NCBI GenBank assembly: GCA_036264635.1
Contig: DATAQN010000250.1
Coordinates: 4,730-68,729, forward strand
Reading direction: 5' to 3'
Length of the DNA stretch: 64,000 nt
Origin: Xanthobacteraceae bacterium
Lineage (GTDB): Bacteria; Pseudomonadota; Alphaproteobacteria; Rhizobiales; Xanthobacteraceae
Each line of letters begins with the position of its first letter. Positions within the stretch are counted from its first letter, which is position 1. Under the pieces are notes generated by a model. It made no database searches and was not told where the DNA came from. It worked only from the letters and a program-made list of their open reading frames with translations. The position numbers and the translations under genes were made by a program. Below are positions 2,826-38,642 of this stretch, one piece after another.

Positions 2826-4505
2826 CTAGTAATTGGTTTTGTCGATGCCTGGCACCGTCAGCAGCGACGTCACCGTGCGCCCGCGCAGGTCATAGACGCG
2901 GGCATACGTTACGCCGTCGCGGGCGACGTCGAACAGGACCGGCGCATCGAGCTTGGCGCAGTAGAATTCGCCGAGCACCATGGCGAAGTCGGCATCCTTC
3001 GGATCCCAGACAATGTTGTATTGCCCGCCGCCGAGCGCGACTGAAACCGGCGGATGCGGACCGCAGACCGCGACGGTCCATACCTTGTTGCGGTCGGCGG
3101 TACGATCTGAGCGGACATAGGCGGCGAGCTTCTGCGCGGCCTGTTTGAACGACAGGCCCCAATAATCGAGCATGAAGTCCTTGCGCGCCCCAGCGACCCC
3201 GCCAGCGAGATGATTGTAGTCGGTGTATTCGTAAGGATGCACCCGCACCATATCGACGACGGGCGAGGCAAGGCCGGCAATCAGTGCGAGGCCGCCGGCG
3301 ACGATGGCAGCTTTCCCGTAAGCCTGAAGCCGCTCCGCGATCCATGCCGCCGCCACGCCGCCGAGCACGGCAAACGGGGGCAGCACAAAGACGATGTGGC
3401 GGATGCCGTTGTAAACGACCGGCCGCGTCGCCACCGCAATCAGGATCGGCAACGTTGCGGCGAGCACGACTGAGAAAAACGCCGCCCGGCGCCCGGCGCC
3501 CGCGCCGCTGTTGTCATTGTTCCTCGCTACGAAAAGCAGGACGCCGACAAGGCCGCAGAGCCCAAGCAGCAACATCAGTTCGGGCACCTGGGCCGCAAAC
3601 AAAGTCGGCACATAGCTGCGCGGCATGTCGTCGACGGGAATGAGCTGGCCGTCGAACAGTTCGCGCCAGGGCTTTTCGAAGACAGTCGAGAAATATTCGA
3701 CGGCGCGGAACGGATTGAGCGGCGAGACGACACTCCACGGCCACACCAAGCCCATGAGCAGATAGGCGAAGATCGCCGCCGGAATGAACGGCAGCAGAAA
3801 CGCGCCGCATTCGGCAAGCGCGGGCTTCAATCCCGATGCCCGCGCGCGAATGGCGATGATCAGCGGCAGCGGAAACATCGCTTCCATCAACGCGAAGCCG
3901 CCGAGCACGCGCGCACCAATTGAGAGCCCGAAGCCAATGCCGCAGAGCGCAAGCGTTGCGGCCGTGGGGCGCGGATATTCTTCGAAGGCGCGCACCAGGC
4001 CGAGCAGGGCAACTGCCATCACGGCGGCGAATGGCCCGTCCTTGGCATTAATGAACATGTGGCCGTAATAAAGCGGGCAGGTCGCGACGAGCAGAAGCGC
4101 AATCAGCCCGGCAAACGGCCCGCCAAGCCTGCGCCCCAAACGCCAGGTTGCGAACAGGCCGATGATGCCGATAATCGCGCCGATGAGACGTCGCGTCTCG
4201 AACAGGCCGAACGGTAGTACTTTCGCGGCGAGCGTCGCGATCATGTCGAAGCCGCCGCCATACATGTAGAGATTGACGAAGGACAGTGCCCGCTGATCGG
4301 TGAAGCCTGATTTGTACAGATCGATGAGAAGCGCCCCGTATTGCGAATGCGTGTAGTCGTCCCAGCCGAGGCCGTAGTCGCGAAACGTGGCGAAGGCTAT
4401 TCCGGCGGTCACCGCCAGCACGCCCAGCGCAAGCGCGTCCAGCACCCGCGCGGCGGATATCGCCTCGGACGGCAGGGCCAGAGATTTCGCGGCAGCGTGT
4501 TGCAC
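2826..4505 (-). CDS. Glycosyltransferase family 39 (ArnT/PMT-like) polytopic membrane protein
   Basis: 559-aa ORF with a GTG start and many hydrophobic helices. The N-terminal loop DYGLGWDDYTHSQYG and overall size fit dolichyl/undecaprenyl-phosphate-sugar dependent GT-C enzymes. Confidence 0.8.
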   Translation of the reverse strand: MQHAAAKSLALPSEAISAARVLDALALGVLAVTAGIAFATFRDYGLGWDDYTHSQYGALLIDLYKSGFTDQRALSFVNLYMYGGGFDMIATLAAKVLPFGLFETRRLIGAIIGIIGLFATWRLGRRLGGPFAGLIALLLVATCPLYYGHMFINAKDGPFAAVMAVALLGLVRAFEEYPRPTAATLALCGIGFGLSIGARVLGGFALMEAMFPLPLIIAIRARASGLKPALAECGAFLLPFIPAAIFAYLLMGLVWPWSVVSPLNPFRAVEYFSTVFEKPWRELFDGQLIPVDDMPRSYVPTLFAAQVPELMLLLGLCGLVGVLLFVARNNDNSGAGAGRRAAFFSVVLAATLPILIAVATRPVVYNGIRHIVFVLPPFAVLGGVAAAWIAERLQAYGKAAIVAGGLALIAGLASPVVDMVRVHPYEYTDYNHLAGGVAGARKDFMLDYWGLSFKQAAQKLAAYVRSDRTADRNKVWTVAVCGPHPPVSVALGGGQYNIVWDPKDADFAMVLGEFYCAKLDAPVLFDVARDGVTYARVYDLRGRTVTSLLTVPGIDKTNY

Positions 4506-4699
4506 AAAAAACCCGGTCTAGACGCAATCGAAGTGGCGAGCGCCAATCACTTTGTTCGGTTCCAAGAAAGTTACGCGCCACAACGAACTAATGCGGCCCA
4601 AATGCACATCGCACAATGCGTCAAATGAGCAGAGCGCAAAGCGCATGTGATGTGGCGCTTTTTTGCGACGTCGCCGTTCTTAAAGGCGCACCGTTCTAG

Positions 4700-4727
4700 G
4701 AAAAAAGCGGGGCGAATCGCCCCGCTT
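4700..4727 (-). terminator. Rho-independent terminator downstream of sodB
   Basis: Minus strand reads AGCGGGGCG-ATT-CGCCCCGCT followed by TTTTTT, a 9-bp GC stem. It lies 60 nt after the sodB stop. Confidence 0.7.
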
Positions 4728-4785
4728 TCAAGTGACTGATCGTCAATGTTGCAGCGCGGCAAAATGTGCCCGCGCTGCGCCGGCG

Positions 4786-5388
4786 TTACTTGATCGCTGC
4801 TTCGTACATTTCGGCCACGTGATCCCAGTTGACCAGGTGATCGAGGAACGCTTTCAAATAATCCGGCCGCCGGTTCCGATAATCGATGTAGTAGGAATGT
4901 TCCCAGACATCACAGCCGAGAATGGGCTTGGCGCCGTGCACAAGCGGGTTCTCGCCGTTTGGTGTCTTCATGATGGTGAGCTTGCCGTCCTTGACTGCGA
5001 GCCAGGCCCAGCCTGAACCAAACTGAGTGATGCCGGCCTGGGTGAAGTCTTCCTTGAACTTCGCCAGCGGGCCAATGTCAGCGGTGATCTGCTTTTCGAG
5101 CTTGCCGGGAAGCTTGTCGCCGCCGCCGCCCTTTTTCATCCATTGCCAGAAATGGATGTGATTGTAGTGCTGCGCCGCGTTGTTGAAGAGGCCCGGCACT
5201 TTGCCGAAGGTCCCGACCACGACTTCCTCGACCGACTTGTTTTCCCATTCGGTGCCTTTGGCGAGGTTGTTGCCGGCGGTCACATAGGCCTGATGATGTT
5301 TATCGTGATGGAATTCGAGGGTCTCGCGCGACATGTTCGGGGCGAGGGCGTCATAGGGATAGGGAAGCTCGGGCAGAGTGAATGCCAT
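4786..5388 (-). CDS. sodB: Fe/Mn superoxide dismutase
   Basis: MAFTLPELPYPYDAL..., HHDKHH and DVWEHSYYIDY are SOD signatures. ATG 5388 is preceded by GAGGAG. Confidence 0.95.
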   Translation of the reverse strand: MAFTLPELPYPYDALAPNMSRETLEFHHDKHHQAYVTAGNNLAKGTEWENKSVEEVVVGTFGKVPGLFNNAAQHYNHIHFWQWMKKGGGGDKLPGKLEKQITADIGPLAKFKEDFTQAGITQFGSGWAWLAVKDGKLTIMKTPNGENPLVHGAKPILGCDVWEHSYYIDYRNRRPDYLKAFLDHLVNWDHVAEMYEAAIK

Positions 5389-5643
5389 TGGTCTACTCCT
5401 CAATGTGAAACCTTGAGACGGCGGGGATGCCGATGAAACCGCGTGGGAAAGAGAATGGTTCCTCTAGATAGCGCCATTAGATAGGGCCAAGGCAGGGGGT
5501 TCGGCAACGGCGCAGCGTTAACGAGATTGCCAGATTCATGCGCCGAGCGGGTTAAAAACGGATAATAGTCCTTGCGTGGCCTATGAAGCGTCGCCACAAT
5601 TCATTCAAACAGCGATCTCCGCGTTGCGGGTCATCGCCGGTAT

Positions 5644-6774
5644 ATGACTATGTACCTGTTTTTGTTGGCTTTTGGTGCGTTTTTGAGTGTGGCCGGCGTC
5701 GTCCTCGCCGCATCCGGCCTGTCTGTTTACGATCATACATTCGATACCAGTCTGGTGACGCCGGGCATTGTCGGCGTCGTCGGTGGGCTGCTTCTTATTG
5801 GCCTTGGCTTCGCGTTGCGGGTGCTCCAGCGGATCGAGCATGCGCTGGAGACGCGTCCGGTCATGCCGCGCGTGGTGCGCGCGGGCGCAACGCCGGAACC
5901 TGTCGCGGCGGGCACAACGCCGTCGGAATTGCCAAGCGAACAGGGGCGAATTCCTTTCCCCGTAAAGATCACGCGGCCGCCGCAACCCGCAGCGGTCCAG
6001 GTGCCGGCGCCGCTTCCCGAAAAGCGCGCTGAAGAGTTGCCGCAGAAATTTCCAAGTATAGCGCGTGCCGCATCCGCGGCCGCCGCAGCGACGCCTGAGC
6101 TACCGCCCCGGCAGCCGCTACACGCGGCCGACGACTACGCCGAGGACACCGCAGGCGACGAAAACAGCGGGTCGTTCTTTCCTCGCTCCTTCAAAGGCCG
6201 AAACGGCGCTGCGCCAGCGGCCAAGGTCTCGCCACGGCTCGATGCCAGTGCCCGTGCGCCACTGACCTCGCAGCGGCCGGCGGGGCCTGCCTTTGACGCC
6301 TTGTGGCCGAAAGGGCCCCGGCGTGGCGCTGCCCAAGCGAGGCCGGCGCCGGCGCCGGAAATGCCCGCTGTCGCGGCCGAGCCCGTCGCTCAGCAGCCGT
6401 CTGCTCAGGAGCGAGTTATTCAAGAGCGAGTTGCGCCGGAGCGAGTAGCTCAACAGCAGCGGCCCCAAGAACCGGTTGCCCAAGAATCGATTACCCGAGA
6501 ATCGATTACCCAAGAATCGATTGCTCGAGAACCGGTCGTTCAAGAGCCGGATGTCCAACAGCAACCGGTCGCGACATCGCCCGCCGTTGCGCCGGATGTA
6601 ACACCCGAGGACGCGCCGGTGCCGGTCTCTATCCTCAAATCGGGGATCGTCGACGGTATGGCCTATACGCTGTATTCTGACGGCTCCATCGAGGCGCAAC
6701 TGCCGCAAGGCAGGCTCCGCTTCGGTTCGATCAGCGAACTGCGCGCCCATATCGAGCAAGACACGCAAAGCTGA
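5644..6774 (+). CDS. Membrane-anchored Pro/Ala/Gln-rich protein of unknown function
   Basis: 376-aa ORF with two N-terminal hydrophobic helices and a long low-complexity Pro-rich region containing pentapeptide repeats. The C-terminal ~50 aa are compact (SILKSGIVDGMAYTLYSDGSIEAQLPQGRLRFGSISELRAHIEQ). Confidence 0.7.
   Translation: MTMYLFLLAFGAFLSVAGVVLAASGLSVYDHTFDTSLVTPGIVGVVGGLLLIGLGFALRVLQRIEHALETRPVMPRVVRAGATPEPVAAGTTPSELPSEQGRIPFPVKITRPPQPAAVQVPAPLPEKRAEELPQKFPSIARAASAAAAATPELPPRQPLHAADDYAEDTAGDENSGSFFPRSFKGRNGAAPAAKVSPRLDASARAPLTSQRPAGPAFDALWPKGPRRGAAQARPAPAPEMPAVAAEPVAQQPSAQERVIQERVAPERVAQQQRPQEPVAQESITRESITQESIAREPVVQEPDVQQQPVATSPAVAPDVTPEDAPVPVSILKSGIVDGMAYTLYSDGSIEAQLPQGRLRFGSISELRAHIEQDTQS
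6406..6570 (+). repeat. Eleven in-frame imperfect 15-bp tandem repeats (pentapeptide QE[RPS][VI]x)
   Basis: Reads QERVI QERVA PERVA QQQRP QEPVA QESIT RESIT QESIA REPVV QEPDV QQQPV. The core DNA unit is caagaatcgattacc. Confidence 0.9.
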
Positions 6775-10863: not shown

Positions 10864-11291
10864 GACACCCACATCCCCGGCGACAGAGATTGTCGCTTGT
10901 GGAGACACGGTAGCAGGCAGCGTTGAAGGCTGCGTTTGATCGCCCGGTACGTTTTTGCGCATAATCGACGAGAATAAGCCGCAAATTTTCGACCAATTTG
11001 AAATAATTTTATTTACCTAAAATTTGAGCGAATGCCGGTTCCGTTGCCGGCCTTTGCGGACTTTTTGCAAGGGCCGATGAATTTGGCGCGCCGATACTGA
11101 AGAATCTCTGGCGCGCCGACTTCGCGCGCCACGGTTGCGGGTCGGAATTTGGCAACGACCCATTCACCATGACGTGGGAATCCATTGCGGCGCTCGCGCA
11201 AGTACGCCCGGCTGCGACCTGGTGACCGGCCGCGGACACGCGGCCTTAGTGTTCGCTTAAGCGGCCTCTGACACGATCCGCGCACAGAAAA

Positions 11292-13211
11292 ATGGGGACG
11301 CGTCTGCACAGCCGGGCGTGCAGTGGGAAATTGGGCCTGTTTGCGCCGATAGGTCTTTATGTCGACACGCTGGTTCATCCGACGGCGCGGCAGGACGTGC
11401 TGACGGCGGCGCGGCATCGCGCCTTCATCGCGCCGCGTCTTCTCGGCAGCATGATCGCGCTGGCCTGTTTCCCGGCCTATCTGCTGGTGCGCGGCGCACC
11501 GAGCGCGATCGAATTATTGGCTTTTGCCTGGCTCCTCGTGCCGATCCTGATCGCCTATTTTCTCTCCCGCACCGGCCGCTATGAGAGCGCGCATATATTG
11601 TCGTCGCTGGCGCTAACCGGCCTGGTTACGGCGGTGGCGGCCTTGACCGGCGGCATCGCCTCGTTTGCGGCGATCTGGCTTGTCGTCGTGCCGCTCGAGG
11701 CGGCGCTTTCGGCCTCGCGCCGCGTGGTCGCAGTCGCCTCGACATTTGCATTGGCCGCCGCCGGGCTTCTGGTGCTGCTCAGCGAGCAGCATCTTTTGCC
11801 GCCGGTGTCGATGAATGCGCCCGCCGCTTTTGCGGCGCTCGGCGTGGTTTCCGCGGCTCTCTACGCAACGGGGCTTGCGCTCGGCGCTGAGGCCCAGGCG
11901 CGCATCAGCTTCTGGCTGCTCTATGCAGAGGAGGACCGTTACCGTCTTCTGGCGCGCAACATCACCGACGTGATCACGCGGCACGACCGCAACGGCGCTG
12001 TGCGCTTTGTTTCGCCGGCGGCCGAAAATCTGTTCGGCGCCCGCGCCGCCATTCTGCACGGTCATGGCCTGTTCGACCGCGTTCATGTTGCCGACCGTCC
12101 GGCCTACCTGACCGCGCTCGGCGATACCGCGGCGCTCGGCGCCACAAGCTCGGTCGAATTCCGCGTGCGCCGCGACAGCACCGATGCCGATGGTCAACCG
12201 GTGCCCGACTTCATCTGGATCGAAATGCGCTGCCGGCCGTTGGACCCGGTGGCGGCCGACACGGCAGCAGAGGGGCACGAAGTGGTTGCGGTGTTGCGCG
12301 ATGTGACCGAGCGCAAAAGGCTGCAACAAGCACAGCTCGATGCGCATGCCGAGGCCGCGCGCGCCAACGACGCCAAGAGCCGTTTCCTCGCCACCATGAG
12401 TCACGAATTGCGCACGCCGCTCAACGCCGTCATCGGTTTTTCCGACATGCTGATGAAGGAAGACGAGCTGATGCTCGACGGCAAGCGCCGCAGCGAATAT
12501 GCCGGCCTCATCAACAATTCCGGCAAGCATCTGCTGTCGGTGGTCAACGGCATTCTCGACATGTCGAAGATCGAGACCGGCAATTTCACGATCACGCCGG
12601 AGCCGTTTGCGCCGTCGCAAGTTGTCGCAAGCTGTTGCGATATTCTGGCATTGCGCGCGGGCGAGGCGGGCGTTCGCCTGGAACGGCGCGCCGGCGCCGA
12701 TCTCCCGGAACTCGTCGCCGACAAGCGCGCTGTCCAACAGATCCTGTTCAACCTCGTTTCCAATGCGATCCGCTTCACCGATCGCGGCGGCACGGTGACT
12801 GTTTGCGCCCGCGCCGAAGCCGCGACGATGACCTTCATCGTCGAGGACGACGGCGTCGGCATCAACGAAGCGGATTTGGCGCGGATCGGCGAGCCGTATT
12901 TCCAAGCCGCCACGTCATATGATCGCCGTCATGGCGGCACGGGTTTGGGGCTTTCCATCGTCAAAGGACTGGTGCGGCTGCACAGCGGCGACATTTCGAT
13001 CCGAAGCCGCATTGGTCAGGGCACGCGGGTGACGGTGCGATTGCCGCTGGATTGTGAGCATGCGCGGGCGAGAACATCCGCCCAGCAACCGGCCGGCGTG
13101 GTGAGTTACCTGGCCGGCGGCACCGTGTCGCAAACGGCGCCTGCCGACGCAGCCGTTGAGGTCATGCTGCGGCTTGAGCCAGAAGACATCGAGGTGAGGA
13201 AAAGTGCCTAA
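11292..13211 (+). CDS. Membrane PAS-domain sensor histidine kinase (PleC/DivJ-type catalytic core)
   Basis: 639 aa. About 5 N-terminal TM helices, a PAS-like segment, the H-box MSHELRTPLNAVIGFSDML, the N-box NLVSNAIRFT, and the G-boxes DDGVGI and GTGLGLSIV. Confidence 0.9.
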   Translation: MGTRLHSRACSGKLGLFAPIGLYVDTLVHPTARQDVLTAARHRAFIAPRLLGSMIALACFPAYLLVRGAPSAIELLAFAWLLVPILIAYFLSRTGRYESAHILSSLALTGLVTAVAALTGGIASFAAIWLVVVPLEAALSASRRVVAVASTFALAAAGLLVLLSEQHLLPPVSMNAPAAFAALGVVSAALYATGLALGAEAQARISFWLLYAEEDRYRLLARNITDVITRHDRNGAVRFVSPAAENLFGARAAILHGHGLFDRVHVADRPAYLTALGDTAALGATSSVEFRVRRDSTDADGQPVPDFIWIEMRCRPLDPVAADTAAEGHEVVAVLRDVTERKRLQQAQLDAHAEAARANDAKSRFLATMSHELRTPLNAVIGFSDMLMKEDELMLDGKRRSEYAGLINNSGKHLLSVVNGILDMSKIETGNFTITPEPFAPSQVVASCCDILALRAGEAGVRLERRAGADLPELVADKRAVQQILFNLVSNAIRFTDRGGTVTVCARAEAATMTFIVEDDGVGINEADLARIGEPYFQAATSYDRRHGGTGLGLSIVKGLVRLHSGDISIRSRIGQGTRVTVRLPLDCEHARARTSAQQPAGVVSYLAGGTVSQTAPADAAVEVMLRLEPEDIEVRKSA

Positions 13212-13845: not shown

Positions 13846-13919
13846 AGCATGATCCGGAAAAGCATGCCCTTGGACTTGATCCGAGGGTGGACGCCGGTTT
13901 TCCGAAAAGATCACGCTCC
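13844..13919. repeat. REP-like palindromic element, family 1, long form
   Basis: agagcatgatccggaaaag...gccggttttccgaaaagatcacgctcc. The same termini occur at 17017, 28192 and 35775. This copy has a ~30-nt internal segment. Confidence 0.7.
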
Positions 13920-15851: not shown

Positions 15852-16646
15852 ATGTCGACGCGCAACCGGTGCCGACGTGATGTGAGACCGGCGGCTTGGG
15901 CCGTTCTCGCATTGCTGGGGCTGTCGGGCTGCTCGAGCATCGGCGATCTCGGCGCGCTGGATCCGCATCCCGTCAACGACGGCATTCATGACTGGGTCGG
16001 CCAGGAGGCTGCGCAGCGCGGCGGCGCGCCGATCTCGGCCTATAATCTGACCGACGACGAACACGCGCTGCGCGATCTCGCTTTTCCGTTAATCGAGCCG
16101 CCCTACGACCGGCAGCGCTGGGATGCCGTCGTCTACGAATGGGGCGACAAGCGCAAATTTCAGCGCGAATTGGCGATCTTCGACCCGACCGCCTATTACG
16201 GCCATCTGCAGGCGCAGCTGTATCGCTCGAGCGCCGCGCGTTACAATCAGATCATCGACGACATCCGCGACGACATCGTGCGGATCGACCCGTTCTTTAT
16301 GACCGCGCGCAAGGTTGCCGATCTCGACCGGCGCCGCCAGACAGCCATGACGCAGGTCCCAAGCCTCAGCGGGATGGAGCGCTTCAACGCCGATGCTCGC
16401 ATCGCCGAGAACAGCCTGACCATCGCCTGGGTTCACGCTTCGCTCAATCAGCGTTGCGCCGGCTACCGCTTCGCCATCGAGCGCATGGCGGTCGCGGAGC
16501 CCGAACTTGCCGCGGGCGAAGCAGACCGGCTGTTGACCGAGCTCACGCAACAGATCGCGGCCAACGAAGTTCAGGTCGTCGAAGCGCCGCGCTTCGCCTA
16601 TGCGTCGGCGCCTGCCGCCGTCATCACGCAGCCGCGGATGCGTTAG
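15852..16646 (+). CDS. Lipoprotein of unknown function
   Basis: 264 aa. Signal peptide with lipobox LLGLSGC. No recognisable domain. Confidence 0.75.
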   Translation: MSTRNRCRRDVRPAAWAVLALLGLSGCSSIGDLGALDPHPVNDGIHDWVGQEAAQRGGAPISAYNLTDDEHALRDLAFPLIEPPYDRQRWDAVVYEWGDKRKFQRELAIFDPTAYYGHLQAQLYRSSAARYNQIIDDIRDDIVRIDPFFMTARKVADLDRRRQTAMTQVPSLSGMERFNADARIAENSLTIAWVHASLNQRCAGYRFAIERMAVAEPELAAGEADRLLTELTQQIAANEVQVVEAPRFAYASAPAAVITQPRMR

Positions 16647-16706
16647 ACCGTCCGCCGCTTGCCGTGCCGGTTTTCCGATTCAGTTGTCAAACAGCGACGC
16701 ATTTTC

Positions 16707-16795
16707 GTAGCCTGGATGGAGCGGAGCGCAATCCGGGAACGACGGTGACGTTGTATAGGCCGCTCCCGGATTACGCTCCGCTCCATCCGGGCTAC
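16707..16795. repeat. Palindromic element, family 2 (32-nt arms, 25-nt spacer)
   Basis: Arm 16707-16738 gtagcctggatggagcggagcgcaatccggga versus arm 16764-16795 tcccggattacgctccgctccatccgggctac. 30 of 32 positions are complementary. Confidence 0.85.
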
Positions 16796-16827
16796 GAAGA
16801 AACAAACCAAAGAAAAAAGAAGGAAGC

Positions 16828-16940
16828 GGAACGCCGACAGACGCAGTGTCTCATGTCCGCACCAGCGGGTGCGGGACGCGCCACAAAGTGCCGGCTTGCG
16901 CCGACCCTCCGCTGCGGGCGCGCTCGCCTGTCGGCGTTCC
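16828..16940. repeat. 113-bp segment bounded by a perfect 13-bp inverted repeat
   Basis: ggaacgccgacag (16828-16840) and ctgtcggcgttcc (16928-16940). The interior is GC-rich with short hairpins. Confidence 0.7.
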
Positions 16941-17016
16941 ACCTACGGTGTCTTCCTGGGGATGTCGGAACATCCTCGTCCAGCTTCAGGCCAGGCATCC
17001 TGGGACGCGGCCGCTT

Positions 17017-17065
17017 GCGCATGATCCGGAAAAGTGGAAGCCGGTTTTCCGATCAGATCATGCGC
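17017..17065. repeat. REP-like palindromic element, family 1, short form
   Basis: gcgcatgatccggaaaagtggaagccggttttccgatcagatcatgcgc, a near-perfect hairpin. Confidence 0.8.
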
Positions 17066-17513
17066 CACCAAGATCCGGCGTTCGCTAGATGGGCGTTACC
17101 CACCCCTACCTGTCCCAGTCCAGAGGCACCCTCGGCCGGCCACGGATTACCGGCGGCATGATGCCCAAAGCCGCCCGGGTGCGGATCGTAACTCCGCCCG
17201 CGGGCACCGCCCTCGCTCCGACCTCCAGGTCTACCTCCCGAAGGCGTCCTTCATGAGCGAGATTGATTCGCACCGGAAGTGTAATCTAAACGGTGACTAT
17301 TGTCAATAAAAAGGGGACAACAGAATTGGAGAGGTGTCTTCGGCGAGTCAATTAAATGCGCTGTCATCGAAATTCGGGTCGCGGAAAATTACGAGTGTCA
17401 GGAATTATGCTACGCGCGCCGGTGTCACTGGGATCGGCACTCCGACCGAATCTTGTCTTGGAAACCTATCAAGATATTGTCGGATAGAAGATAGGAACGA
17501 AGGGCCAAGCGAC

Positions 17514-18626
17514 ATGTCCGACGGATGGATCGCAGAACAACTAAAGCCGCTTTCTATGTTTGAATTGGCAAAATGGTGGGCCGATGGTCTGAAAATCGCT
17601 GGCGCAGGCAACGGCGCTGGTGTTCTGGCGTGCATAGTGGGACTTCAAAGCTATCACGGCATTCTTTTAAAGGTGAGCGGCGTCTCGTTCTCTATTGGCA
17701 TATTCGCATTCGTGTTGGCGTTTGCTATGATCCACAAAGCCGTGTTTGCGCAAGACGAGGTAGCACACGCGGCACGCCGAAAGGATGTGGCAGCGATTGA
17801 AGCGAATTCCGCCCTCTCCGGCAGTTCGATGATGATAGCTAATTATTGTGCTATCATTTCAGTCGTGGCGTTTCTCGTCGGATGCTTCGTAGGGCTGGTG
17901 GGCGTTTTGGGGTCTGACACCAGAATTCAACCGTCTCAAAGCGTTCCAGCACAAGCACCAGTCCAAACTGCATTGAGAGAGATCCCAATGCAAGAAAATG
18001 CATGGCAATTTGGTTCGACCCAGCTTTTGACTGTCATTGGGTTCGTTATCACCATTGGCATAGCAATCGGCGGATTCAGAACGTTCGGACGATGGAAGCG
18101 TGAAAAGATTGAAGAACGACGAATTGAAATCGCCTTCGAGGCTCTATCTATCGCACAAGAATCAAAATTGGTGTTTGGTAGAATACGCAATCCTGCTGGC
18201 TACGAAGCCGAATGGAAGGCGATGCCAGTTAAAGAAGGGGAGACCGAAAGCGATCGCAGTATGCGCGGCGGATCATACGCGATCTTGGCCCGGTTGAGTG
18301 CTCATGCAGATTACTTTGACAGAGTGTCCAGACTTCAGCCAAAGGCTGTTGCAGTCTTCGGCGACAAAGCCGAACGTGCCTTCCATCATTTAAACGCAGC
18401 GCAAGACTTAGTTCGCGAGGCGGCAATGCAACTTACTTGGTTTTTGCCTGTGCACCCTGAAAAGCCGACAAAAGAAGATTTCGACATGCGAATGAAATTG
18501 CGAGGTGATCTATGGGCAGGATTTCAAAAGCCGGATCGCGTGGAAAACGCGGTTATTGCATTCCGGTCAGAAGCGGAGGCCGCGTTCAAGCCCGTCATTC
18601 AACGCAGGTTTCAATCAAGCGGCTAA
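17514..18626 (+). CDS. Orphan membrane protein (about 4 TM helices plus a C-terminal soluble helical domain), island gene A
   Basis: ATG 17514 (MSDGWIAEQLKPL...). Hydrophobic stretches GAGVLACIVGL, VSFSIGIFAFVLAFAMI, MMIANYCAIISVVAFLVGCFVGLVGVLG and LLTVIGFVITIGIAIGGF. About 47% G+C. No known motif. The track ORF start at 17334 seems too far upstream. Confidence 0.7.
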   Translation: MSDGWIAEQLKPLSMFELAKWWADGLKIAGAGNGAGVLACIVGLQSYHGILLKVSGVSFSIGIFAFVLAFAMIHKAVFAQDEVAHAARRKDVAAIEANSALSGSSMMIANYCAIISVVAFLVGCFVGLVGVLGSDTRIQPSQSVPAQAPVQTALREIPMQENAWQFGSTQLLTVIGFVITIGIAIGGFRTFGRWKREKIEERRIEIAFEALSIAQESKLVFGRIRNPAGYEAEWKAMPVKEGETESDRSMRGGSYAILARLSAHADYFDRVSRLQPKAVAVFGDKAERAFHHLNAAQDLVREAAMQLTWFLPVHPEKPTKEDFDMRMKLRGDLWAGFQKPDRVENAVIAFRSEAEAAFKPVIQRRFQSSG

Positions 18627-19091
18627 ATTGGGATCGTTAGCGAAACGTCTATTTCGGAGTTGCTGAGCATTCGGGGTCGAAATGCAGGCTAGTTCATTTT
18701 TCTGAATCGCTTCAACCAATACCTCAAACCAAGCCGCGGCATCACCGTCCAAAATGGATGGGTTCATGGTTGGCTCCCGGTCCGCAAGCAAGCATGCAGC
18801 CTGGATGACAGCAAACTGAGACTTGTGCCGCCAAATTTCGTAATTTGGTTTCGGTCTGACGCCTGCGTGCGCCAATCTGAGAAAGGCTGGAAAGACGAGC
18901 GCGTATGCCACGTGCACCAAAGTCGCCAAGGCCAGCACGGCAATCACCGGAGCCGGTAAATCTTTCGCATAGGACCAAAACGTTAGTGCCGCAGTGACGA
19001 AGAAGGCAACGACTGCTTTGCGCCACTCAAAATAATCGAGGACCGGCTCGACCCATGGAAGGGTCGCAATGATTTTTTCTTTAATACTCAT
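18615..19091 (-). CDS. Orphan 2-TM membrane protein, island gene B
   Basis: 158 aa with an ATG start. TM stretches AVVAFFVTAALTFW and PVIAVLALATLVHVAYALVFPAF are followed by a ~75-aa soluble tail. The start lies 18 nt downstream of gene C. Confidence 0.65.
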   Translation of the reverse strand: MSIKEKIIATLPWVEPVLDYFEWRKAVVAFFVTAALTFWSYAKDLPAPVIAVLALATLVHVAYALVFPAFLRLAHAGVRPKPNYEIWRHKSQFAVIQAACLLADREPTMNPSILDGDAAAWFEVLVEAIQKNELACISTPNAQQLRNRRFANDPNLAA

Positions 19092-19109
19092 AATCTGAAC
19101 TTCGTGTGT

Positions 19110-19631
19110 TCAATCGTCCGCCCGCTGATCCCATTCTTCACTTAGCTTCTGAAGGTCCCAAAAGCTCTTTGGACCAGCGTCAATGTTTGGCGTTCTACGG
19201 ACGCGGTCGATAAACAGCCGAGTTCGATTGTAGGAATCGGGAATGACGTAACCCCAATATTGATGGGCGACCGGATCGGAAAATGCCTTCGACCTAACAC
19301 CCATTGCCAGCATCTCACAGATATTAAGCCATTTTATCAATGCGATGTAATCGGCATCGGTATGCTTCAAAACGGGCCGGGACACGATCGCGGCGATATT
19401 CGGAAGTTCTGCTCTGAAGTCGTTGTATATTTTGAATGTGTTTTCATCCATTTCTGTCTTGAAAAAGAAATCTATCGTCGCGCGACGGCGGGCAGTTTGC
19501 GACTGAAACCGTAGATTCAGCAGAGCGACGATCACTCCGACGACAGTTGTGATCAAGGCAAGAAGGGCAACGGCTGCTGTTCCGATCGGTGCAAGCTTCG
19601 CAAGCTCCTCCCAAAAGTGAATGTCCCCCAT
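19110..19631 (-). CDS. Single-pass membrane protein, DUF4760-like, island gene C
   Basis: ATG 19631 is preceded by GGGGAGAGAG. TM stretch GTAAVALLALITTVVGVIVALL, then RRRATIDFFFKTE...IKWLNICEMLAMGV. Architecture and length (174 aa) resemble DUF4760 from memory. Needs an HMM check. Confidence 0.6.
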   Translation of the reverse strand: MGDIHFWEELAKLAPIGTAAVALLALITTVVGVIVALLNLRFQSQTARRRATIDFFFKTEMDENTFKIYNDFRAELPNIAAIVSRPVLKHTDADYIALIKWLNICEMLAMGVRSKAFSDPVAHQYWGYVIPDSYNRTRLFIDRVRRTPNIDAGPKSFWDLQKLSEEWDQRADD

Positions 19632-19819
19632 CTCTCTCCCCGCGGTGAGCATGAACGCTTCGGTTGCATTGTGCGACTGAGGCACGCTACATTTCAATTG
19701 TTTTCTAATGTCCGTCCTTGTCACTTCGGTCAGGAAACGGGAAAGGGGAGGAAGCCAATAGAGTTGCCGCCCCACGATGGATGCTGAAGCGTCGCGCCCT
19801 CGCTGGGGTTGATTGAAAA

Positions 19820-20869
19820 ATGCGAAAGCTATTCTCGACACTTTTGGCGCTCATCGGCGTGGCGGCTCTGATGCCTGAAGTCGGTCCCCATGACGCCGCG
19901 GCGAACGTATGTAGTTGGGTGTCATTTTGGGGTGCGTGCCTCCAGTCGCTGCCACTTTCCTTTGATAAATGGGCCTGGTTGTTCCCGGCCGTTCTATTTG
20001 CGACAGCATTTTCTGTTCTCATTTGGACGCCAGCTTTCCACCTCTTTAAAAAATGGAGCGATCGTCACGGTTTGATCGAACTACGAGAAGCTGCCGGTTT
20101 GCTATATGGCGAATTGCGGGGGACTGATCTCGGCCGCTTTACCGAAGGGCTTACGGAAAGTGAAAGCGAAATATTAGACAACGTCGGAATGCAAATTCTC
20201 CACAACGCGCCAGTGTATGTACGGCGTTCTCCGTCGCCGAAATGGGAACCCTTTCCGCGATCCGAACTAAGCAAAATGGGCGTCTGCAACGGCGCGACTG
20301 GTATTCGATATTGGGGCAGAGATCAGGTCTTTTATACCGATCCGAAAGTGTCGAGGCGCGAGCTCCGGCGCGTTTCTAAACACCTTAGACAAAATGCGAA
20401 TTTCGCTGGTGAATGGTCGAAGGCGCGCCGCGCGCTCGAGCAAGCATCGCCGCTAGAAATCATCTTTGATCCGTCGAATCCAAACAGAAGATTCTGGTCC
20501 GTCGAAACAGCGAAAGATGAAAAAGGTAAGCCGCTAGGGGCGTATTGGGAATACCGAGCGCTCATCAGAAACAACTCTCATAAGACGCTGAGAAACGTGA
20601 AGGTCATTATCGAAGCTATTGGTCCAATGCCTAGTAGGCCGGAGCCATCTTATTTCGATATGAACAAGCAGCAATTAATAGACTTACATCCGCAAGACGA
20701 GGCATTAGCTGTAATACGACGTTGGTTCAATCCGCCTATAGTCGTGGGAATGGCGAGCGGCGCGGATATTTATGGCCCAATCAAAATGACAGTGAGCGCT
20801 ACTGACATCACGCCAGCTGAAAAACTGTTTCATTTCGACCCGGAGCGAACGCCGATGATCTATGAGTAG
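19820..20869 (+). CDS. Orphan membrane-anchored protein (2 N-terminal TM helices plus a ~270-aa soluble region), island gene D
   Basis: 349 aa with an ATG start. Hydrophobic LFSTLLALIGVAALM and WAWLFPAVLFATAFSVLIW. The C-terminal half looks beta-rich (NVKVIIEAIG..., IKMTVSATDI). No known motif. Confidence 0.7.
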   Translation: MRKLFSTLLALIGVAALMPEVGPHDAAANVCSWVSFWGACLQSLPLSFDKWAWLFPAVLFATAFSVLIWTPAFHLFKKWSDRHGLIELREAAGLLYGELRGTDLGRFTEGLTESESEILDNVGMQILHNAPVYVRRSPSPKWEPFPRSELSKMGVCNGATGIRYWGRDQVFYTDPKVSRRELRRVSKHLRQNANFAGEWSKARRALEQASPLEIIFDPSNPNRRFWSVETAKDEKGKPLGAYWEYRALIRNNSHKTLRNVKVIIEAIGPMPSRPEPSYFDMNKQQLIDLHPQDEALAVIRRWFNPPIVVGMASGADIYGPIKMTVSATDITPAEKLFHFDPERTPMIYE

Positions 20870-21028
20870 GAAAACGCGAGTAGGTCAAAACCAAGATGGC
20901 CCATGTCAAATCAGCGGTAAGCTACGGACAGTTCAGCGCGGAAGTGAGATTGAATTATGGTGACAGTGCGCACTCGATTGCCTCCTTCGCCAGAAGGCTT
21001 GGGTCAGCGCCTAGCCGGCCACTAGACC

Positions 21029-21583
21029 TTACTGATCAACCGGTTGCAGCTCGCACTTCGCGGCGGCCAGCGCTTGGCGCGCCATTGGCATGAGGCCGGG
21101 CTCTGGCGCCAGTGCGCGCAACACGATGAGGCCGACGGTGCTTGGTGACTCGATGATCAGCCGGTCGGCGGCGGTGACGTCTTCTTCTTCGGGCATGTCG
21201 GCGTGCTGTACCGGCGTCATCAGATCGAGCTCGATGGTGCGGCGGCCGGCGGCGCGGTCGTTGATGGCGTAGTAGGCGACGCTCTTTCGCGTGTAGAACG
21301 TCACCGACGTATAGGCTTGGCTCACCGGCGCTGTCAGCTTGATCGAGCCGTTGCTCAGATCGTAGCGGCATACCGCGGCGGCGAAGGCCGGATCCATGAA
21401 CGGCATGATCGCCTGGCCGGCGGTGGGCGCCGGCAGCGGCACCATCGTATTGACCGGCGTGACCGGCGATAGCCGCGAATAGGCGTCCTGCTTCGCCGCT
21501 TGCGGCATGGCGAGCACCGTCGACAGATGCACGATGCCGCCAAGCAAAAGACCGCTCAGGATCCAGAGCAGTGCACGGATCAT
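21029..21583 (-). CDS. Membrane-anchored DUF1254-like protein
   Basis: 184 aa. N-terminal anchor MIRALLWILSGLLLGGIVHL. 4-nt ATGA overlap with the upstream DUF1214 gene. The family call is from memory of the common DUF1214/DUF1254 pairing. Confidence 0.65.
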   Translation of the reverse strand: MIRALLWILSGLLLGGIVHLSTVLAMPQAAKQDAYSRLSPVTPVNTMVPLPAPTAGQAIMPFMDPAFAAAVCRYDLSNGSIKLTAPVSQAYTSVTFYTRKSVAYYAINDRAAGRRTIELDLMTPVQHADMPEEEDVTAADRLIIESPSTVGLIVLRALAPEPGLMPMARQALAAAKCELQPVDQ

Positions 21584-22158
21584 GAGCAGCCCTTTCGGGT
21601 AATCGTCGGCATAGGTCCTTCTTTGGTGGTCCCGGTGGAAACGCCGATCGGCGTGTCATAGAGGCGCAAGATCAGGACGAATTTGTCGGCGCCGCCGGTC
21701 GGCAGCCAATTGCCAGGCCGCGCCAGCGGCGCCACCGTGATGGCAAAATTGCCGTTGCCGCCGCGGACGATCTCGTCGCTGGTAAAACTGTGCCGGTCGA
21801 TGGCGTTGGCGACGAGCCTGCCTTCCGGATCGTAGAGCGTGATCGTCCAATATCGCGCCGCCGGCGTCATACCGCTGACGACGAAGGTGCAGCGGCCGTC
21901 GAAGGTATTCTTGGCATCGTCGCTGCGGGCATAGAAGGCGACGCCGTCACCCATGCCGGTCGGCAGTTCGCCGGTGCGCGCGATATTGGCGCGCGCATAG
22001 GGGTCGATATCGACCGAGCCGCTCTTCGGCCATGCCGTCCAGGCGCCGACGTTCAGCGAGCCGAAAGCAACGCCACGCGTCAGCGTCAGCCATGTGGCGC
22101 CGAGCCCGACCGCGGCCGCGATAAGGAAAGTTACCAGTGAGCCTAACAGCAGCCGCAT
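21580..22158 (-). CDS. DUF1214 domain protein with N-terminal anchor
   Basis: 192 aa. ...ARYWTITLYDPEGRLVAN...GNWLPTGGADKFVLILRLYDT is typical of DUF1214. Confidence 0.75.
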   Translation of the reverse strand: MRLLLGSLVTFLIAAAVGLGATWLTLTRGVAFGSLNVGAWTAWPKSGSVDIDPYARANIARTGELPTGMGDGVAFYARSDDAKNTFDGRCTFVVSGMTPAARYWTITLYDPEGRLVANAIDRHSFTSDEIVRGGNGNFAITVAPLARPGNWLPTGGADKFVLILRLYDTPIGVSTGTTKEGPMPTITRKGCS

Positions 22159-35764: not shown

Positions 35765-35774
35765 CATTTTGATG

Positions 35775-35823
35775 GAGCATGATCTTTTCGGAAAACCGGT
35801 GTCCACTTTTCCGGATCATGCTC
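35775..35823. repeat. REP-like palindromic element, family 1, short form
   Basis: gagcatgatcttttcggaaaaccggtgtccacttttccggatcatgctc. Its reverse complement aligns with the copies at 13844 and 17017. Confidence 0.8.
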
Positions 35824-35832
35824 TAACGCTGG

Positions 35833-36504
35833 TCAGGCGAGATTCAAGCGCGCGGTAGGCAGGTCGATCAAGCCGCGGATCATGATGTTGAAGGCGACTA
35901 CGATCCGCTCTTCGGTCTCGTCGGCAGATCCCTGCTCAACGGAATGGGGAATATGGCTTGGCCAGATCACCATGCGGCCCTTCTCGGCGGGCACGATGAA
36001 GACGTCCGAATTCAACTCATTCTTGCGCCAAAAGGTGGGCTCGAGGTTCTTCGATAGGAGCCGCGGCGAGGCGAATGCCGTCGATCCGCAATTCTTCGGT
36101 GTCTTGATATAGACGAGGCCACTCAACAGGCAGTTTGGATGCATATGCATGAAGTGACGGCGATTGGGATTGGCGATATTCGCACACATGTTGGTGATGT
36201 AGTGGGAATCCCGCTTTATCGCCATCGTGTCGAATATGATTCCGGATTCCTCCATGATGACGTCGACCAGATCCTTCATCTCAGGGAGCGTCTGGATGTT
36301 GTCCGGCGTCATGTAAGCGAGGATCGCCCCTTCCGGAGAAAACACGCCTTTGCCGGCGGCGCGCAACTCCTGGAGCTTTTTCTCGATACGGTCGCAGAGG
36401 CTGATGTCCGGCAGCTTTCCCGTAAACATCGGAGTCGGGAAAAGCATGTACATCTGCTTCGCCGTAAGCTCCTTCGCGTCCGACTTCTTCGGGATGTCGA
36501 GCAT
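35833..36504 (-). CDS. 2OG-Fe(II) oxygenase-like protein (TIGR02466 / 2OG-FeII_Oxy_5 type)
   Basis: LFPTPMFTGKL..., HMHPNCLLSGLVYIKTP and VIWPSHIPHSV fit the H-x-H...H facial triad of this family. The start is uncertain (36504, 36453 or 36624). A counted 60-nt line is 48% G+C. Confidence 0.7.
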   Translation of the reverse strand: MLDIPKKSDAKELTAKQMYMLFPTPMFTGKLPDISLCDRIEKKLQELRAAGKGVFSPEGAILAYMTPDNIQTLPEMKDLVDVIMEESGIIFDTMAIKRDSHYITNMCANIANPNRRHFMHMHPNCLLSGLVYIKTPKNCGSTAFASPRLLSKNLEPTFWRKNELNSDVFIVPAEKGRMVIWPSHIPHSVEQGSADETEERIVVAFNIMIRGLIDLPTARLNLA

Positions 36505-36853
36505 TGCAGGTCGTGCCTTGGCAGTATTTTGCGCGACTGTTCTTCGGGCAACTGAAGGCTGCCGACAAGGCTTGGCCGTGCATAGCAGCCCATTGGCGAG
36601 AATGTGCGCAGGGAGAAATTCCAAAATATATGTCTGTGGCCGTAAATCGACGGCGCTAACGCGTAAATTTAAGATAAACTATATAGAGAATGTGACGATC
36701 GCGAACGTGTACGGATTGGCCAGTGTGGCAAAGTCACGTTGATTGGAATCTTGCCTGACTCCCATGCTCGATCGGTATCGCGATGATGCATTGCGAACTT
36801 TTCAAGCAGCGCTGGCGCAAGTTTGATCAGGAAATAATTGCGCACTGGGCAGT

Positions 36854-37948
36854 TCAGTGGATCGCTTGGGCCGCAGCGGCGATGTGACGTTGTTCGAGCC
36901 GGACGACGCTATGAAATGCCCGCACCAGGTCCTGGTCGAGCTTAGGGCCCATGTCGAGGAGGATCTTATAAGCCTCCGATCCCGGCAGCGGCGGCTTGTA
37001 CGATCTGTGCTCGATCAGCGCGCCGAAGATGTCGGCGATGGTCATTACTCGCACCAGATCGGTAATTTCGCGGGCGTGCAGGCCATGCGGGTAGCCGGAG
37101 CCGTCGAGATATTCGTGATGATGCACCACGATGTCGAGCATTTCCTTGTGCAGCCCCGCCACGGTCTCCAATGCCTTGAAGCCAAATTCCGGGTGCCGCC
37201 TCATGATGTCCATTTCGCGCTCGTCGAGACGACCCGGCTTTTCGAGAATGGCGACTGGAATCCGCGCTTTGCCGATGTCGTGAAGCATGCCGGCACAGGA
37301 CAGACGCTGTCGGTCGGTCCGCGAAGCCCCGATCTCTTGGCCGAAGGCTACCGCCACTCCAGTGACGAGCAGGCAATGCTGATAAGTCGCGCTGTGGTGC
37401 GTGCGTACCGTCTCGATCCAGGTATTGAGCCCCTGTGTCTCGACGTGACTGACAATAGCGCGGTTGGTTGAATCGAGCGCTTCCGTATTGAGCGCCTCGC
37501 CAAGGCATGCCGAGGCGAACACGTTGTGCAACGTATCGATCGCCGTTGCGACCGCCGGCGAACTCCCAATTGTTGCATTGTCGGGATCGGCGGACAGCGC
37601 CGCGACATCGCCCCATAGGATCGTCAGCAGATCGTGCGCGGTGAATGGACGTGCGAGAATGTCGGTCGCGCCGAGAGCGAAGGCTCTGGCTTGCTCGAGA
37701 TGTGAAGCTTTGTCGATCGCGAATATGGCTTTTGTTTTGGCGGGCTTGCGCATCAGCCACGCTTTGACCTCTTGCAAGTGCGACGCACTCGCCAGGTCGA
37801 TATCGATCAGAACCGAAGCGGCGGGCGGCGAACTCAGCGCCAGATCAAGCGGCTCCAGCTCGAGATCAATAACACCATTGAGCTGGCCGCGCAGGGCCTT
37901 ATAGCCGAAAACCGACTCGGCGATGAGGGTCAGGTGGTGTGTGGACAA
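36854..37948 (-). CDS. HD-GYP domain protein with degenerate N-terminal receiver-like domain
   Basis: TTG start. The HD-GYP core has MLHDIGKARIP and HHHEYLDGSGYPHGL. The N-terminal ~115 aa have a REC-like layout (VLIDIDL...DILARPF) but lack the conserved Lys and the acidic pair. Confidence 0.88.
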   Translation of the reverse strand: MSTHHLTLIAESVFGYKALRGQLNGVIDLELEPLDLALSSPPAASVLIDIDLASASHLQEVKAWLMRKPAKTKAIFAIDKASHLEQARAFALGATDILARPFTAHDLLTILWGDVAALSADPDNATIGSSPAVATAIDTLHNVFASACLGEALNTEALDSTNRAIVSHVETQGLNTWIETVRTHHSATYQHCLLVTGVAVAFGQEIGASRTDRQRLSCAGMLHDIGKARIPVAILEKPGRLDEREMDIMRRHPEFGFKALETVAGLHKEMLDIVVHHHEYLDGSGYPHGLHAREITDLVRVMTIADIFGALIEHRSYKPPLPGSEAYKILLDMGPKLDQDLVRAFHSVVRLEQRHIAAAAQAIH

Positions 37949-38414
37949 GCTGGCTCTTCGAGCAAATATTCGGTTTAGTCTCTAGACCGCAATTTGCGTT
38001 ACTCAGGCCAGCCGCCAAATGCTAGCCCCCAGCAAGCAAGCTAATTTGAACAGATTTAAAAATCCTATAAGCGATACTATGAACAACAAACAAATATCGG
38101 CTCAACGAAAAGCGCGCGCAATCGTGTGAGGTGAGGCGGGAAGGATAATTGCCAGGCAATGCAATAAAGCGATTGCCGTTGCGGGCCTACTGCCATCAAC
38201 GAGCCCTGAGCCTATAACAGGGGCAAGCTCTACCTATAACAGGGATTGTCCTCGGTTGTGATGGCTCCGTGCGGCAAACGGTCGTACGGCGCAGTAACGA
38301 GAGGGAGGGGCAGGGGGAAAATGCGTAGCCGGCACCCCAGTTTTGCATCGGCGGCCGCTGTGATTATGATGAAGCCGAGGCAAGGAACGAAACCGGGCAA
38401 AATCGGGGAGCGTC

Positions 38415-38642
38415 ATGCGAAAGTCTATCATTGCGCTGGTCATGGGCGGTGCGGCTTTGGCGATGGCCGTCCCGGCTCCGGTACAGGCGCATTGGCGCCA
38501 TACGCACTGGCGCTGGCACCACGTCTGGCATCGCGGACCGTCGTACTATCCACCCTACGCGTACTATGACGCCAATCCCTATGGGCCGGCCTGCGCTTGG
38601 AATCGCTCGTGGGACGGCTATTGGCATCGCGACTGCTTCTGA
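38415..38642 (+). CDS. Small secreted His/Trp/Tyr-rich protein
   Basis: 75 aa. RBS GGGGAG. Signal peptide MRKSIIALVMGGAALAMAVPAPVQA. The mature 50 aa contain 7 His, 7 Trp, 8 Tyr and 2 Cys. Confidence 0.6.
   Translation: MRKSIIALVMGGAALAMAVPAPVQAHWRHTHWRWHHVWHRGPSYYPPYAYYDANPYGPACAWNRSWDGYWHRDCF

Follow-up and report, generated by a model that had tools for sequence, protein, structure and literature searches.

The window analysed here, 64,000 nucleotides of contig DATAQN010000250.1 of a Xanthobacteraceae bacterium (assembly GCA_036264635.1), contains a low-G+C islet of four open reading frames (ORFs), A to D, between a core lipoprotein gene and a DUF1254 gene. The islet is probably foreign cargo of an insertion hotspot, assembled as a mosaic of three independently circulating cassettes (A; C together with B; D). 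Its structure, namely mosaic hotspot cargo and not a four-gene system, is very likely, while a working function of at least one of the genes against phages or other mobile genetic elements (MGEs) is possible and proposed tentatively. The neighbourhoods of homologues elsewhere make a role in conflicts with phages or mobile elements at the inner membrane plausible. The mosaic structure is deduced from the occurrence of homologues of A as solo genes, the truncation of B, the end of nucleotide homology to a related contig (L046) inside B, the unrelated profiles of the families and the absence of their co-occurrence beyond contig L046/L047.

Composition and borders of the insert

Among all stretches of the same size in the window, the lowest G+C content was found at positions 17250-21022 (3.77 kb), namely 0.51 against a window mean of 0.619 (standard deviation (sd) 0.026), a deviation of -4.2 sd. 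Over 500-nt intervals, G+C is 0.48-0.55 across 17250-21000 and 0.62-0.67 on either side; G+C at third codon positions (GC3) is 0.48-0.56 in ORFs A-D and 0.79-0.83 in the genes of the lipoprotein, DUF1254, DUF1214 and PBP1A. The sharp low-GC patch (51% versus 62% G+C) described in an earlier reading of the sequence alone, hereafter the sequence-only reading, is thus borne out. The insertion itself occupies positions 16650-21022, 4,373 bp in total, and comprises a GC-rich left segment and the low-GC islet. The borders and flanks are the following:

15852-16646, plus strand: lipoprotein gene, left core flank, with a signal peptide and Cys lipobox; 78-87% amino acid identity in the nearest species
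16644-16649: left copy TAGACC of a 6-bp direct repeat, consisting of the lipoprotein stop codon and ACC
16650-17249: non-coding, GC-rich (64%) part of the insert that consists of host-type repeats
17250-21022: low-GC (51%) islet proper, delimited by G+C windows and GC3
21023-21028: right copy TAGACC, directly preceding the DUF1254 stop codon (TTA on the plus strand, 21029-21031)
21029-21583, minus strand: DUF1254 gene, right core flank, the first of the genes DUF1254-DUF1214-PBP1A

The lipoprotein and DUF1254 genes are convergent. The hexamer TAGACC is duplicated around the insert, and at the empty site of L003, the closest relative, the sequence is TAG-ACC-TTA, TAGACCTTA; an empty version of the junction in the window would read …GCGTTAGACCTTACTGATCAA…. 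In view of this empty-site sequence and of the presence of TAGACC at both ends, the whole of 16650-21022 lies within the target duplication. The 6-bp duplication is compatible with a transposition-like or a microhomology-mediated insertion. It is the sole repeat of this kind, and no long att (attachment-site) repeats were found at the insert; no convincing terminal inverted repeats were detected at its ends, by eye and by repeat search, and no tRNA gene is present in the 64-kb window.

The left border contains a palindrome with 38-nt arms at 16704-16798 and another with 16-nt arms at 16828/16925. A dispersed 55-nt repeat (catgatccggaaaagtggaagccggttttccgatcagatcatgc) is located at 17019-17075, with further copies in the window at 35766-35821 (minus strand) and 13869-13919 and in nine related loci (L001, L004-L008, L045, L049 and L050); it seems to be an element of the REP (repetitive extragenic palindromic) or MITE (miniature inverted-repeat transposable element) type, spread throughout the lineage. 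A milder second dip in G+C (0.54-0.60) was observed at 36000-38500, adjoining a copy of this repeat. A search of 16000-21600 with Rfam gave matches at chance level only, and a scan for promoters and terminators gave no more matches than shuffled sequence.

The sequence-only reading had also reported the palindromic left border and the absence of an integrase, a transposase and a tRNA at the islet, both of which hold. It had taken the right neighbour as the first gene of the penicillin-binding protein (PBP) operon: the gene ending at 21029 is the first of DUF1254-DUF1214-PBP1A, but it encodes the DUF1254 protein, and the PBP gene lies two genes further.

The insertion site in related genomes

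A genome scan with the lipoprotein as query yielded 20 loci, belonging to uncultured Xanthobacteraceae and one Chthonobacter. The order of the upstream gene, lipoprotein, DUF1254, DUF1214 and PBP is kept in all 20 loci, and homologues of A-D were found in none of them, so that all 19 related species lack the islet genes. The site is empty in 16 of the 19 close relatives, where no more than about 10-60 bp separate the stop codons of the lipoprotein and DUF1254 genes; accordingly, the entire stretch 16650-21022 is an insertion. Horizontal acquisition and variable presence, proposed from the sequence alone, are thereby supported.

The other three of the 19 species carry different cargo at the same gap. 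The insert of L008 (1.9 kb, 50% G+C) contains, at 10929-12545 on the minus strand, a gene for a protein of 538 aa that has an HNH nuclease domain at its N-terminus as well as the motif 'FDGQHK'; among PADLOC models, matches to this protein are confined to its HNH domain (e.g. the models of Cas9 HNH and PtuB). The insert of L006 (1.4 kb) encodes a 219-aa orphan with multiple transmembrane (TM) helices and no family match (10894-11553, minus strand), and the insert of L007 is represented by 1.2 kb of GC-rich repeat DNA. The presence of different cargo at one gap in three other species makes the lipoprotein/DUF1254 gap a recurrently used insertion hotspot. At the junctions of the L008 insert (10799 and 12710), the sequence AGCGC by the lipoprotein stop codon is a candidate short duplication, individually too short for significance.

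These results bear directly on the view that the four genes are housekeeping accessories of the cell envelope, tied to the DUF1254-DUF1214-PBP1A operon or to the lipoprotein, the only points in favour of which are the position beside the PBP operon and the predicted membrane anchoring of the products. The genes are missing in all 19 related species with the flanking order kept, their GC3 is 0.25-0.3 below that of the flanks, no envelope family of Pfam or NCBIfam was matched, and homologues elsewhere stand in unrelated neighbourhoods. This view is scarcely credible and is effectively refuted by the empty sites.

The islet is also present, in identical form, in three further metagenome assemblies. 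These three copies represent one population and not independent conservation.

Genes of the islet

The locus tags of this metagenome-assembled genome on the contig run from VHU22_24980 to VHU22_24995. The coding features of the islet are the following:

17514-18626, plus strand: ORF A (VHU22_24980), 370 aa, the N-terminal 158 aa of which (17514-17987) form a locus-specific multi-TM extension
17988-18626, plus strand: module A', 212 aa (residues 159-370 of ORF A), one TM helix running into a helical bundle
18615-19091, minus strand: ORF B, 158 aa, a two-TM hairpin with a small soluble domain; a 3'-truncated copy of a family of about 180 aa
18664-19647, minus strand: C-B cassette, with its extent given by nucleotide homology to L046; its joint, at 18664, falls within B
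19110-19631, minus strand: ORF C, 173 aa, DUF4760, an N-terminal TM helix with a domain of about 140 aa; its start agrees with that of the L046 orthologue
19632-19819: divergent C/D intergenic region, with only weak promoter-like matches, not exceeding in number those in shuffled sequence
19820-20434, plus strand: N-terminal module of ORF D, approximately aa 1-205, with TM helices 2-17 and 54-83, a Cys-containing loop and an alpha/beta domain (85-206)
20435-20869, plus strand: C-terminal module of ORF D, approximately aa 206-349, a beta-sandwich (212-339)

TM helices were predicted in all four ORFs by hydropathy and, for D and A', by AlphaFold2; by the positive-inside rule, all soluble domains are predicted to face the cytoplasm. 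ORFs A, B and D have no match in Pfam, PADLOC, PHROGs or NCBIfam, and in PADLOC-DB v2.0 all four ORFs stayed without a match at a limit as lenient as E <= 1. The models of D and A' and the family scans give no sign of an enzyme, nor of a fold that binds nucleotides or DNA. In searches of PDB sequences, neither the profile queries for A', B and C nor the query with D by itself yielded a match with E below 0.09; none of the four proteins matched any Sie family of PHROGs, and no DUF4041 or GIY-YIG domain was found in them with Pfam.

Much of the sequence-only reading therefore stands: the four ORFs lie at the coordinates it gave, all four products begin with hydrophobic helices, C alone resembles a named family (DUF4760, E 2e-17), no enzyme or helix-turn-helix motif was found in A-D with Pfam, PADLOC, PHROGs, NCBIfam and fold comparison, and no described defence system was matched in PADLOC. 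Its account of A and B needs correction, A having homologues solely over residues 159-370 and B being truncated.

ORF A and the A' family

Homologues of ORF A (at least 113 clusters) align solely to residues ~159-370 and are nearly all 205-240 aa in length. They are encoded by solo genes for proteins of about 215 aa, many of which begin exactly at the position of M159. No homologue of residues 1-158 was found, and this extension has no similarity to the 219-aa membrane orphan of L006. The frame upstream of M159 is open for 218 codons, from 17334, with a chance probability of about 3e-5; because so long a stop-free run is improbable by chance, the extension is probably translated, and ORF A probably results from a fusion at this locus and not from erroneous annotation. 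The AlphaFold2 model of A' (predicted local distance difference test, pLDDT, 95) consists of a long TM helix continuing as a helical bundle, and the juxtamembrane motif GGFRTFGRWKREKIEERRIE is almost invariant in the family. A Foldseek comparison of this model with the PDB returned generic helical bundles only, with a best E of 0.19.

The C-B cassette

ORF C precedes B on the same strand, at a distance of 18 nt, and belongs to DUF4760 (Pfam PF15956), with 64.1 bits against a gathering cutoff of 25, E 2e-17, and coverage of model positions 2-141 of 141; it also matches phrog_2284 with E 5.5e-11. In the literature covered, DUF4760 is mentioned in one paper, incidentally, in a list of genomic-island genes. 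ORF B stops short of the C-terminus that is conserved in its family, so that ~25-35 residues are missing, among them the tail ELKKFCxARGRxPEFL. On contig L046/L047, an orthologue of C (84% amino acid identity) is followed, again after 18 nt, by a full-length orthologue of B (79%). The window and L046 share 77.6% nucleotide identity over 985 nt, from 19647 to 18664, and this homology breaks off within B, 38 nt short of the stop codon of ORF A, which is convergent with B. C and B therefore form a single cassette, severed where it meets that of A. The pairing of DUF4760 with a B-type partner was found here and in L046/L047 only.

ORF D and its two modules

The AlphaFold2 model of D (pLDDT 91) gave, in Foldseek searches of the PDB and BFVD, generic beta-sandwiches only, with a query TM-score (TMq) of ~0.2; its generic fold neighbours include the TMEM106B luminal domain, Wzt-C, arrestin-N and DUF4352-like viral proteins. 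Among the homologues of D, both halves are present in 8 proteins, the N-terminal ~205 aa only in 22 and the C-terminal ~140 aa only in 47. In the last set, identity to the domain of D is 57-82% in 44 proteins and 47-52% in the remaining three, while the N-termini are unrelated, with TM helices predicted in 34 of the 47 and an HNH_3 domain in one. The N-terminal module, in turn, is joined to at least 22 other C-terminal partners. D is thus a member of a separate, domain-shuffled family. A gene of L027 (7083-7853), directly downstream of a homologue of D, has a weak match to the C-terminal module (hidden Markov model (HMM) E 2.6e-4) and may be a tandem paralogue.

Neighbourhoods of homologues elsewhere

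At every locus with enough flanking DNA for comparison, the members of the four families have a G+C content of 47-57% (38% in one case), typically about 50%, against 55-65% in the surroundings.

Relatives of A' were found in contexts of phages, mobile elements and predicted defence genes. In L039, a relative (5989-6599) stands between a module of tape-measure and Sf6-type small-terminase genes and a group of integrase and AbiEi/AbiEii genes, and is frameshifted into two ORFs. Another adjoins genes of a TIR/NB-ARC/TPR protein and of DEDDh/PDC-S48, a third adjoins a split PDC-S06 gene, and a fourth has an integrase fragment on one side and a serine recombinase on the other, with insertion sequence (IS) elements. 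On the IMG/VR contig L038, the homologue adjoins a Ro60/TROVE-vWA gene and an HNH endonuclease gene (4010-5632 and 95-1237). Relatives of B occur within an element with integrase, AlpA and VapE-primase genes. Relatives of D stand singly, as islets of one gene flanked by housekeeping genes, next to IS elements and TumE/HVO_A0114 pairs. Such pairs were observed near homologues of D in two of four contexts (L026, 7881-8670, and L028, 9101-9851), that of L026 lying 300 nt downstream of the homologue.

Relatives of C are present on phage contigs of IMG/VR: two are flanked by capsid-like and portal genes, to which they run in the opposite orientation, and a third lies just upstream of a gpA terminase and a lambda-type portal gene. 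A tblastn search of plasmids with C matched five Bradyrhizobium plasmids, where the gene stands amid small hypothetical genes; the same search with A', the B relative and D returned nothing, as did the tblastn search of phage GenBank records with C and the scans of viral contigs with B and D.

The phage contigs, together with the single TM helix of C and its faint similarity to holin models (Phage_holin_2_1, E 0.18; phrog_4237, E 0.28), would suit a lysis or holin-like membrane cassette derived from a prophage, formed by C alone or with B, in place of an exclusion function. These matches are far below threshold and cover the TM helix only, and the conserved soluble domain of ~140 aa does not resemble a holin. 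The gene in L040 and L041 stands among structural genes on the opposite strand, with no adjoining endolysin, the DUF4760 family is also present on Bradyrhizobium plasmids, and there is no lysin gene among the ORFs of the islet. A holin-like role is accordingly very improbable.

Relations of the families to one another

Context loci of all four families were scanned by tblastn and profile HMMs, comprising about 5 independent loci of A', 4 of D, about 17 of B and 6 of C. Among all retrieved loci, two families stand together only in L046/L047. The possibility that A' and B are divergent DUF4760 proteins was considered and rejected, as profile-profile comparison showed A', B and C to be unrelated.

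The compact four-gene module put forward in the sequence-only reading is not supported by this comparison; the lack of co-occurrence outside this genome, which that reading had itself named as counter-evidence, was largely observed. In its fullest form, it would be one undescribed multi-component system of membrane-acting defence or exclusion, in which a common control region would serve the divergent transcription of D and C-B, and A would take part. All four products are predicted to be membrane-anchored and their genes are similar in G+C, the C-B spacing of 18 nt recurs in L046/L047, where a gene resembling the D N-terminus lies upstream, and the islet is identical in the three further assemblies. 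However, those copies come from the same population, and L046, at 77.6% nucleotide identity, is a close relative of the same cassette. No second family was found near the remaining loci of B, A', D and C, even by profile HMMs; moreover, B is truncated here, L046 is devoid of A', and A', B and C are unrelated. Taken together, these data render a single four-gene system improbable.

The loss of the conserved C-terminus of B and an extension of A found nowhere else might instead be attributed to decay, the islet being the remnant of a degraded prophage or integrative element, or of successive illegitimate insertions, maintained without selection and devoid of present function. Genes of mobility are gone, the A' relative in L039 is frameshifted, and promoter-like sites do not exceed those of shuffled sequence. 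Yet A', C and D are full-length for their families, with intact reading frames, a run of 218 stop-free codons ahead of A' is unlikely to have arisen by chance, and many lineages retain the families, the cores of which are conserved (in A2, 5 columns are invariant and 27 nearly so). Decay without function is therefore an unlikely explanation, if less so than a four-gene system.

Several observations weigh against the interpretation of the islet as a mosaic of cassettes with a role in conflicts. None of the four families has a functional annotation or a match to a PADLOC model, and the truncated B and the odd fusion in A would equally fit decaying, non-functional DNA. Scans with Pfam and for tRNAs revealed no integrase, transposase or tRNA to account for mobility, and the TAGACC duplication could reflect microhomology instead of transposition. 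In L046, the genes stand in the row D-N-like gene, C and full-length B, with no homologue of A'; the D-N-like protein, encoded upstream of C, has 172 aa and a hairpin resembling the N-terminus of D (A1 HMM, E 6.7e-6; BLASTP, 25% over 136 aa). A looser association of D-like, C and B genes in the L046 sub-lineage, with a functional link of D, C and B, is thus possible. The context samples are small, with 3-6 independent loci per family having useful flanks, and many contigs are short.

Comparison with known systems and possible mechanism

Like other hotspot islets between core genes, the islet occupies a site that is empty in most relatives and that receives unrelated cargo, including the HNH nuclease gene; its composition is deviant, and at other loci its cargo families neighbour integrases, IS elements and predicted defence genes. 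It differs from them in being very small and in containing no integrase, transposase, tRNA, long att repeat or recognised defence gene. With DUF4760, ORF C shares the match to the full model and the N-terminal TM helix of the family.

SieA of phage P22 is an inner-membrane superinfection-exclusion protein, for which interference with incoming DNA at the inner membrane was shown (PMC10883804). Genes of the islet resemble it as small, single-gene, non-enzymatic accessories with products predicted to lie in the inner membrane, and relatives of C and A' occupy moron-like positions on contigs of phages or prophages. Unlike SieA, they lie outside a prophage and have no match to Sie sequences or PHROGs, and a block of entry would be assumed here by analogy. 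SNIPE is a membrane-bound defence nuclease with DUF4041 and GIY-YIG domains, in which a conserved C-terminal domain is combined with diverse N-termini, mostly supplying one or two TM helices (PMC13190303). The D family shows the same combination of a constant C-terminal domain with a variable anchor (34 of 47 partners with predicted TM helices), but D contains a beta-sandwich in place of a nuclease or DUF4041, an HNH domain being present in one homologue only.

Under the mosaic interpretation, the three independently mobile cassettes would have accreted, or recombined, in one inter-gene gap. In the first, the single-TM helical-bundle protein A' has gained its unique multi-TM N-terminus at this locus; in the second, the DUF4760 gene with its two-TM partner, the 3' end of B was lost at the joint with the first; in the third, the halves of D (hairpin with alpha/beta domain, and beta-sandwich) recombine freely with partners in the same gene pool. 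Since the proteins are non-enzymatic, predicted to be membrane-anchored and associated with phages and MGEs, and the D family follows a SNIPE-like pattern, stoichiometric interference appears to be the likeliest activity. Each protein alone may act as a stoichiometric binder at the inner membrane, interfering with an incoming phage or mobile element. Candidate modes are a block of genome entry or assembly at the membrane and a gating of the membrane upon sensing of infection; the model for these is provided, by analogy, by the exclusion proteins of prophage 'morons'.

A bolder proposal is doubtful. According to it, the D family would be an undescribed single-gene inner-membrane immune family of soil Alphaproteobacteria, with the beta-sandwich as recognition or effector module, DUF4760-B and A' would be phage-borne exclusion genes, and the lipoprotein/DUF1254 gap would be a lineage-wide defence hotspot.

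Significance for the Xanthobacteraceae

The locus documents well an ordinary kind of feature, namely a hotspot occupied by a small islet of foreign, hypothetical genes, and is not a new system. The defence repertoires of this soil group of Xanthobacteraceae are poorly charted. If the proposed function is correct, the unnamed families A' and B and the two modules of D would represent inner-membrane conflict proteins in uncultured soil Xanthobacteraceae, and DUF4760 would receive its first context. The domain shuffling of D is the most promising lead, as it suggests which half of the protein is the constant functional unit.

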